From: Escherichia coli | Lineage (GTDB): Bacteria > Pseudomonadota > Gammaproteobacteria > Enterobacterales > Enterobacteriaceae | Length of the DNA: 64,000 bases | Assembly (NCBI RefSeq): GCF_002854065.1 | Contig: NZ_CP024147.1 | Direction: 5' to 3' (one strand) | Shown here: positions 61,501 through 64,000 of the stretch, piece by piece | Numbering within the stretch: the first letter of the stretch is position 1 | How the letters are laid out: every line of letters starts with the position of its first letter | Made by a program: the position numbers

Positions 61501-64000
61501 CGGCACTGATAACCGTGTCTGAAACGCTTCCTCCGGCATTCACTCTCTGAAGACCACCACCGGTGACAGTAGTGTTGTTGGCGATACCGCCATTTTGTAT
61601 CCATTGTCCGCCGGTATTGGCCTCGTTATCCGGCCCATACTCCAGACCGGTACTGATGGTCATTCCGTTGGCCGTACCGAGAACAATCTGGTTGTCATGA
61701 TTTGTCAGTGTTCCGCCGCTCACGGTTTCTCCCGCCTGTACGACCGTGTCAGCAGCCAGTACCGGGACTGACGTGACAGCAGCAAGAGACAGCGCAACCG
61801 CCACACCGGTGCGTTTTCCCCGTGAGCGCGCCAGTTCGGAAGCCACCACCAGGGTGCCCGTAATGTGATTCCATACCAGCCTGTAGCTGGTGTTCAGATG
61901 TCGTTTCATCAGCTTTTCCTTACAGAGGGTGAATAAAAAAGCCGGTACCCACAAATGTGGATACCGGCAGGTACAAAACAGCATGGTCAGATAAAGTGGT
62001 TTTTCCCGGACATAAATGCTTCCCCTCTCTCATCCGCCAGAGAAGTATCAGTCCGTTGTGTGCAATTCCGTTCTGCATGATGAAGAGATTCAACTGCCTT
62101 TTCGCAGGCCATTAACCACTATAAACGATCGATAGCAACGATCGATACCTGTTTTATCGATTGTTTTACTCTATTAACAGCAAGACAGTCACGCAAGAGA
62201 AAGAGGTGGATATGAGGGGGGTGTATCATGTTTTCAGTTGGTTAACGCAATGTAATCAGGCATTTCCCTGGCAGACTGTTCAGAAGAAAATCCAGTTCCA
62301 TACAGCGCGGGCAACAGAGACCACCGAGTCACGGACGGCACGCAGAACCGTGCGTGCAACAGAGGCAATACAGACGCTCTCCGCCGTGTCAAATATCCGG
62401 TCCACCGCACCGGTAAACTGTTCACGGGCCTGAGACCGGACAGATTCCGTGCGCAGCTCGTCCTGCAGGCGGGTCATCAGGGGACTGGCGGCATGGTCGG
62501 GAAGCGCTGTCATGAGCGCACTGACCAGCGTATCCAGTTCCCAGCCGGTGCAGGCCGATACGGCCACAACCGGATGTACGGGCCGGAACAGCCGGAATAC
62601 CGCATCTGTTTTCTCACGAATGTTCTGTGCCTGTGCGGGAGAAGGCTGAATGCCGGCCATATCCCATTCATGGCAGGGCTCCGTTTTGTCGGCCTGCGTC
62701 ACCACAAACAGCACCTGCTGATGTCCCCGGTGCAGGATGTGTCGCCAGAAATACTCATCCACAGACAGGGCACGGTCATCGGCTTTAATCAGCCACAGTA
62801 CCAGGTCCAGTTCAGGCAGAATGTCACGGTACAGAGCTTCATACTCTGCATCCCTGTCCCGACTCTCGCCCACCCCGGGCAGGTCAGTGATAACCATGCT
62901 GTGACCGTGGCCACTCAGACGGAAGCGCCGCACTTCCCGGGTGCCGGCGTGAACATCACTGACCGGGGTGACCTCCCCCTGAAACAGTGCATTACAGAGT
63001 GAGGATTTACCGGCCCCGCTTTTACCCATAATGCCAATCACGGGTTCGTGACTGGTGAGTTTGCGCAGATGTTCCAGGATGTGACGGGAAAGTGAGTAAG
63101 GCAGGGAGGAGAGCGGTTTTTCAATTGCCTCAATGGCATCAGACGGATTCATACATGTATTCCCGGTGAAAAAAGACAAAACCCCGCGCACCGGAAAGGT
63201 GGCGGGGGATTCACGGAGATAATATCTGTCTGAAATTATTTAGAATGCACCTGGTGCACTGCAAAGGAAAGGCAATATTCCGTTCCTCCTCCTTGTCGTG
63301 AATACCCCAGGTATCTCACAATATACACCGACTTACTCCGGGGCTGCCTGAACCACAAGATTGCTGTAGAATTGCCCCCAATGATTCAGGTCCAAACCAG
63401 GCAAATGGATTAAAAATGACAAGTATTCAACAACGAGCAGAACTGCACCGCCAGATATGGCAAATTGCCAATGATGTCAGAGGTTCTGTTGACGGATGGG
63501 ATTTTAAGCAATACGTTCTGGGCGCACTTTTCTACCGTTTTATCAGCGAAAATTTTTCCAGCTATATTGAAGCCGGTGATGACAGTATCTGTTATGCGAA
63601 ACTGGATGACAGCGTAATTACTGATGATATTAAAGACGATGCCATCAAAACCAAAGGCTACTTCATCTACCCCAGTCAGCTTTTCTGCAACGTAGCTGCG
63701 AAAGCAAATACCAATGACAGACTGAATGCGGATTTAAACAGCATCTTCGTTGCTATCGAAAGTTCTGCTTACGGTTACCCTTCAGAAGCTGACATCAAAG
63801 GTTTGTTTGCTGATTTCGATACCACCAGTAACCGCCTGGGTAACACCGTTAAGGATAAAAATGCCCGCCTGGCCGCGGTTCTGAAAGGGGTTGAAGGGTT
63901 AAAGCTTGGCGACTTTAACGAACATCAGATTGACCTGTTCGGCGATGCCTATGAGTTCCTGATTTCTAACTATGCCGCGAATGCCGGTAAGTCAGGCGGC

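Follow-up and report, generated by a model that had tools for sequence, protein, structure and literature searches.

Gene content at the distal end of the window

The stretch of DNA analysed here, referred to as the window, comprises 64,000 nucleotides of an Escherichia coli contig (NZ_CP024147.1, assembly GCF_002854065.1). Its distal part carries a tRNA gene, a module of genes typical of mobile islands and, beyond a divergent intergenic region, an open frame that runs off the window edge (Table 1). The frame extends over 585 bases from an ATG start and, when translated, yields 195 codons with zero stops. The nearest in-frame stop upstream is found at 63299–63301, no alternative ATG, GTG or TTG codon occurs between that stop and the ATG at 63416, and the remaining five frames of the final 1 kb of the window are stop-rich and closed. 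The same start codon is used for hsdM in the RefSeq annotation of the nearest genomes, with position 21417 of the closest relative (locus L001) corresponding to window position 63416. The first-pass annotation of this DNA had described an open-ended frame with an HsdM N-terminal domain from that position, which is borne out by the translation and by the matches to TIGR00497, HsdM_N and PDB 7BST detailed below. It had also put the absence of the frame from the ORF track down to the missing stop codon, and ORFs that leave the source sequence are indeed unlisted there. The observation is real and its coordinates are confirmed. The part of hsdM inside the window corresponds to codons 1–195 of 518 (approximately 38 % of the protein) and encodes the N-terminal helical domain together with the first 25 or so residues of the N6-adenine methyltransferase domain.

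Table 1. Coordinates of the tRNA-linked island features and of the hsdM fragment in the window
Feature	Position	Strand	Remarks
tRNA gene, CAT anticodon, annotated as tRNA-Ile in relatives, after rpoD–mug (ileX position)	53824–53899	+	Island integration site
Conserved island module upstream of hsdM	53913–62279	-	DUF4942 through Ag43
DUF4942	53999–54844	-	Island module, first gene from the tRNA
DUF5983/DUF957 region		-	Island module, between DUF4942 and CbtA
CbtA	55643–56020	-	Island module
CbeA	56109–56462	-	Island module
DUF987	56542–56763	-	Island module
RadC/JAB	56850–57326	-	Island module
Antirestriction protein	57341–57826	-	Pfam PF03230, E = 7e-37
DUF932	57917–58735	-	Island module
Ag43 adhesin	59066–61909	-	948 aa, NF033177 1982 bits
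GTPase-family gene, 290 aa	62280–63152	-	Last gene of the conserved module, fixed neighbour of the hsd cassette
Divergent intergenic region, GTPase gene/hsdM	63153–63415	.	Presumed location of the hsdM–hsdS promoter
hsdM 5' part, type IC (EcoR124 family)	63416–64000	+	TIGR00497, Pfam, PDB 7BST identity; runs off the window

Family identity of the hsdM fragment

The fragment matches the NCBIfam hsdM model TIGR00497 with 233.6 bits (E = 4.1e-69) over profile positions 1–200 of 515, a score that is reached with 38 % of the protein and compares with a whole-protein cut-off of 242.75. Pfam HsdM_N (PF12161) is recognized at fragment residues 10–157 (E = 2.5e-17), and residues 171–195 align with profile positions 2–26 of N6_Mtase (PF02384). 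Among solved structures, all 195 of the 195 residues are identical to residues 3–197 of EcoR124II HsdM (PDB 7BST chain D, E = 1.5e-127), the start codon in the window aligning with PDB chain residue 3, and the second-best solved HsdM scores 64 bits. The fragment is likewise 100 % identical to the first 195 amino acids of RefSeq WP_072650529.1, and the four DNA differences that separate it from L001 are all synonymous, leaving the protein unchanged. The AdoMet-binding motif I (DPAAGSGS) and the catalytic motif IV NPPY (SNPPYS) are present in a full-length relative that shares all of the first 195 residues; in the gene studied here, the positions of both motifs fall past 64000, outside the window. 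The fragment has a G+C content of 45 %, compared with 54 % in the remainder of the island and 52 % in the core, as expected of imported cargo.

The TIGR00497 and HsdM_N matches, together with the complete identity to EcoR124II, indicate that the frame represents the initial 38 % of an hsdM gene of type IC, membership of the EcoR124I family being assigned by close sequence relatedness to EcoR124 HsdM. Type I families are delimited by subunit exchange and by relatedness in sequence, and type IC includes EcoDXXI and EcoprrI besides EcoR124I. The initial reading of the frame as an N-terminal HsdM opening an hsd locus is therefore upheld by TIGR00497 and 7BST, but the well-characterized type IC/EcoR124 family had gone unrecognized. 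An hsdM fragment on a mobile island is already known and amounts to ordinary annotation.

The region upstream of hsdM

The GTPase-proximal 58–97 nt or so of the divergent intergenic region recur in thousands of paralogous islands. The type IC hsdM genes found on plasmids (761 records, DNA identity 90–97 %) become homologous only from approximately 10–14 nt 5' of the ATG (window 63403–63406) onwards, which implies that the upstream region is specific to the chromosomal island; the plasmid copies thus differ from the gene in the window both at the DNA level and in having another upstream control region. The hsdM–hsdS promoter presumably lies within this intergenic region, and a promoter scan of 63100–63480 gave no match to the sigma-70 consensus.

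An Rfam scan of 61800–64000 returned a single match, to the IS102 sRNA family (RF00124), and no Rfam family was found in the hsdM upstream region. The RF00124 match is located at 61928–62164 on the minus strand, in the spacer that separates Ag43 from the GTPase gene, and exceeds the gathering score (71.5 bits, E = 2.5e-11). The same spacer contains two GATC sites, at 62127 and 62140, and is presumably the control region for Ag43 phase variation.

Integration site and mosaic structure of the island

Alignment to the empty site of strain CUWW06 places the left island junction at 53912/53913, 13 nt past the tRNA gene. Over 12 kb, the core of the window is 100.0 % identical to strains CUWW06 and 100416, in both of which the tRNA gene is followed directly by nfeF (L013 3827–3955; L014 40472–40547). 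An empty site in strains with an identical core points to a recent gain of the island in this lineage, and its absence from such near-identical kin marks what appears, from these comparisons, to be a recent horizontal acquisition.

The same island occupies the same site in strain 571 (L002), where it is approximately 37.5 kb long. A perfect 25-nt copy of the tRNA 3' end is directly repeated at its two boundaries there (L002 11285–11309 and 48793–48817), and the integrase gene adjoins the partial tRNA copy, distal to the intact tRNA gene. The same module, together with the hsd cassette, is also found at other tRNA sites, among them at a tRNA-Ile near gab, at a tRNA-Ser near ghrA and near infA–aat. 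The exact GTPase protein occurs in 907 blocks of the collection searched, belonging to several island types, only some of which carry hsdMSR. The combination of genes in the module (GTPase, Ag43, DUF932, antirestriction protein, RadC, DUF987, CbeA/CbtA and DUF4942) is shared with CP4-44-type cryptic islands.

Among complete E. coli genomes, the best DNA identity to window positions 62000–64000 is 99.3 %, the nearest genomes reaching 99.2–99.3 %. None of the 26 loci compared matches the island without differences, and an exact match to the 948-aa Ag43 allele is not on record in a collection of 153 billion gene positions. The portion from approximately 56500 to 64000 is 98.5 % identical to L022 and L002; the CbtA/DUF4942 part is approximately 92–93 % identical to the same two loci and closer, at approximately 97 %, to L009 and L017. 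Judged by these identities, the island in the window is a mosaic relative to the loci compared. Between cbeA and the DUF987 gene, where the window has an 80-bp gap (56462–56542), several related loci contain a 645-bp gene for a hypothetical protein of 214 aa that lacks a Pfam match (L001 13902–14546).

The hsdMSR cassette in related genomes

The arrangement that would be expected beyond the window edge can be derived from related loci. The nearest genomes encode an HsdM of 518 aa, an hsdS gene that overlaps hsdM by 4 bp and, after approximately 120 bp, an hsdR gene for a protein of 1038 aa; the gene order in relatives is hsdM–hsdS–hsdR, with a gap before the separate hsdR. The HsdR protein of the nearest relatives aligns with EcoR124I HsdR (PDB 2W00) over residues 1–1038 with 2272 bits, relatives' HsdR carries the PF12008 EcoR124_C domain, and the alignment of the nearest relatives' HsdS with that of EcoR124II extends over the entire protein. 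An HsdR of the EcoR124 type comprises an HSDR_N nuclease, an SF2 motor and the EcoR124_C domain. Across 15 island-type loci, HsdM is 98–100 % and HsdR 91–99 % identical to the L001 reference proteins. HsdS occurs in these 15 loci as at least seven alleles of 377–415 aa, those other than the L001 allele being only 40–47 % identical to it. Conservation of HsdM and HsdR combined with divergence of HsdS is as expected of a type I family, and because the hsdS alleles differ, the target sequence of the enzyme of this strain is not predictable.

The junction between the GTPase gene and hsdM is present in 430–436 of 5,426 complete E. coli genomes (approximately 8 %). Full-length hsdR at the expected spacing accompanies it in 376 of these 430–436 genomes, as counted with a synthetic query in which window positions 62280–64000 were joined to the hsdR of a relative; the resulting proportion (approximately 87 %) reflects DNA coverage rather than intact frames and so sets an upper bound on the share of intact systems. 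The first-pass annotation expected hsdS and hsdR just past 64 kb, which holds for that majority of junction genomes, a minority of relatives being degraded.

The best explanation of the frame is that it is a type IC hsdM gene opening an hsdMSR cassette on a recently acquired tRNA-Ile island, and we give this reading a probability of roughly 0.8. Intact hsdS and hsdR genes probably follow beyond 64000 in the source genome, to judge from the census. The points that weigh against the explanation as a whole are that only 38 % of hsdM lies in the window, which shows neither a catalytic motif nor hsdS or hsdR, that approximately 13 % of junction genomes are without a properly spaced full-length hsdR and some relatives are plainly degraded, that the region upstream of hsdM gave no promoter consensus, and that the island is a mosaic identical to none of the loci compared.

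The alternative that survives best, albeit as an unlikely one, is a degraded or orphan locus in which the first 195 hsdM codons are intact and an insertion sequence, a deletion or a nonsense mutation follows beyond the window, so that there would be no restriction and, if hsdS were missing, no methylation either. Decay of this kind does occur among the relatives: YD786 has the same junction with hsdM followed directly by IS1 and with neither hsdS nor hsdR, and hsdR is cut by IS1 at residue 955 in L023, carries a stop at codon 24 in L021 and is broken into four pieces in L026. Copies of IS1 and IS5 flank the cassette in most relatives, and 54–60 of the 430–436 junction genomes (approximately 13 %) are without a properly spaced full-length hsdR. 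On the other hand, full-length hsdR is retained by the large majority of junction genomes. The exclusively synonymous changes relative to L001, as well as the strong conservation of HsdM across the 15 loci, are consistent with purifying selection. The apparently recent gain of the island, indicated by the empty site in near-identical kin, also leaves less time for decay.

Cargo beyond hsdR in relatives

Apart from an intact or a decayed cassette, the type IC locus might include an accessory gene, for instance a prrC-like anticodon nuclease gene, inserted in the cassette or joined to it, or might be followed at once by new defence cargo. A precedent exists in EcoprrI, which is, like the cassette considered here, a chromosomal type IC hsd cassette of E. 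coli, and in which PrrC is embedded in the locus (PMC12707154). The cassettes related to the one in the window differ from EcoprrI in this respect, as no gene, prrC included, was found at the hsdM/hsdS overlap of 4 bp or in the hsdS/hsdR gap of approximately 120 bp in any of the 15 related loci.

Several of the genes that follow hsdR in relatives would fit cargo with a defence function. In L001 (28342–31828, minus strand), two adjacent DUF262 genes encoding 680 and 483 aa are located beyond an IS1 element after hsdR, and their products match the HEC-06, Orf5 and SspE models of PADLOC only over the N-terminal 100 or so residues. In L020 (15966–17132, plus strand), hsdR is directly followed by an ORF of 388 aa that has no Pfam or PADLOC match. 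On these sequence grounds, the DUF262 pair and the 388-aa ORF may be regarded as candidate defence cargo in relatives. A PADLOC screen of three small or uncharacterized ORFs located after hsdR in relatives gave no match. Strain EC556 (L016 16692–24302) illustrates how defence genes accumulate in a variable island slot: beyond its type IC cassette come IS5, truncated forms of a second type I hsdM and of an HNH endonuclease gene, and the anti-phage gene hhe.

The cargo after hsdR is often unrelated to defence, however, and includes IS1 with pgaABCD, capsule genes of the kps type, an invasin-like adhesin gene and insertion sequences. Taking the truncated hsdM, HNH and Hhe genes, the DUF262 pair and the unmatched ORF on one side, and the uninterrupted cassettes and the frequent non-defence cargo on the other, an accessory gene in or immediately next to the cassette is very improbable. 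An undescribed defence gene or system located anywhere between hsdR and the integrase gene of the source genome is somewhat less so, yet still improbable; it draws on the differing contents of this slot among relatives and on the mosaic island, which matches nothing in the collections searched, whereas no observation points to undescribed cargo in this genome. The suggestion, made in the first-pass annotation, that this is the likeliest place for undescribed defence cargo finds no support: the 15 loci have no embedded gene, and what follows hsdR is variable, ridden with insertion sequences and composed of known defence genes as well as genes with other functions.

In its behaviour, the slot after hsdR matches the variable cargo part of islands linked to tRNA genes, a phenomenon that has already been catalogued for E. 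coli. A survey of this species counts 41 defence hotspots, of which 18 are tRNA loci (Hochhauser et al. 2023, PMC10121019). The features shared with the hotspots described there are integration at a tRNA gene, a distal integrase with direct repeats and variable, defence-bearing cargo; neither 'ileX' nor 'mug' is mentioned in the main text of the survey (PMC10121019).

The idea that the fragment encodes an HsdM-like protein of another system, namely MADS (mad2), a BREX-like system or a type II/IIG enzyme, is effectively refuted, as the PADLOC scores in its favour (mad2, 85.8 bits; MTase_II, 33.3 bits) are far below that of TIGR00497, the fragment is identical to the EcoR124II M protein, and relatives with an identical HsdM all have an adjoining hsdS and an EcoR124-type hsdR, or remnants of these. 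The MADS mad2 and type II methyltransferase readings were dropped on the score and on this identity.

Proposed function and relation to known systems

The frame is the start of the gene for the methyltransferase subunit, hsdM. Under the preferred reading, this is the first gene of an hsdM–hsdS–hsdR cassette of a type IC system, and the cassette would represent AT-richer cargo of a mobile island that uses the tRNA-Ile gene after rpoD–mug as its integration site. In systems of this type, two HsdM subunits and one HsdS subunit form an M2S1 methyltransferase that N6-methylates adenines in a bipartite target, the sequence of which depends on the two HsdS target-recognition domains (PMC12707154). 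The addition of HsdR leads, via an R1 intermediate that is incapable of cleavage and is typical of type IC enzymes, to the R2M2S1 complex, which stays at an unmethylated target, translocates the flanking DNA at the expense of ATP and cuts far from the target, thereby restricting incoming phage and plasmid DNA (PMC12707154). Type IC systems also establish themselves in new hosts without ClpXP-dependent control, a property that suits a mobile cassette (PMC12707154).

The closest known counterparts are EcoR124I and EcoR124II, encoded by plasmid R124 (PDB 7BST, 2W00). The likeness comprises the complete identity of the HsdM fragment to EcoR124II HsdM residues 3–197 and, in the nearest relatives, the high HsdR score, the end-to-end alignment of HsdS and the common gene order. 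The EcoR124 systems are plasmid-borne, whereas the cassette described here is part of a chromosomal, tRNA-integrated island. The system may be expressed and active, and the strain probably restricts incoming DNA with a bipartite specificity, which would affect its transformation and its susceptibility to phages. Beyond annotation, the finding carries little meaning, as the EcoR124 family is among the best-studied restriction systems and the island-borne cassette is present in approximately 8 % of complete E. coli genomes.

The island also contains an antirestriction gene of the PF03230 family (Table 1), which is thus found on the same element as a type I restriction system. Members of the family, of the ArdB/KlcA type, are known inhibitors of type I enzymes. 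Such a combination of defence and counter-defence functions within a single island is familiar, though still poorly explored.
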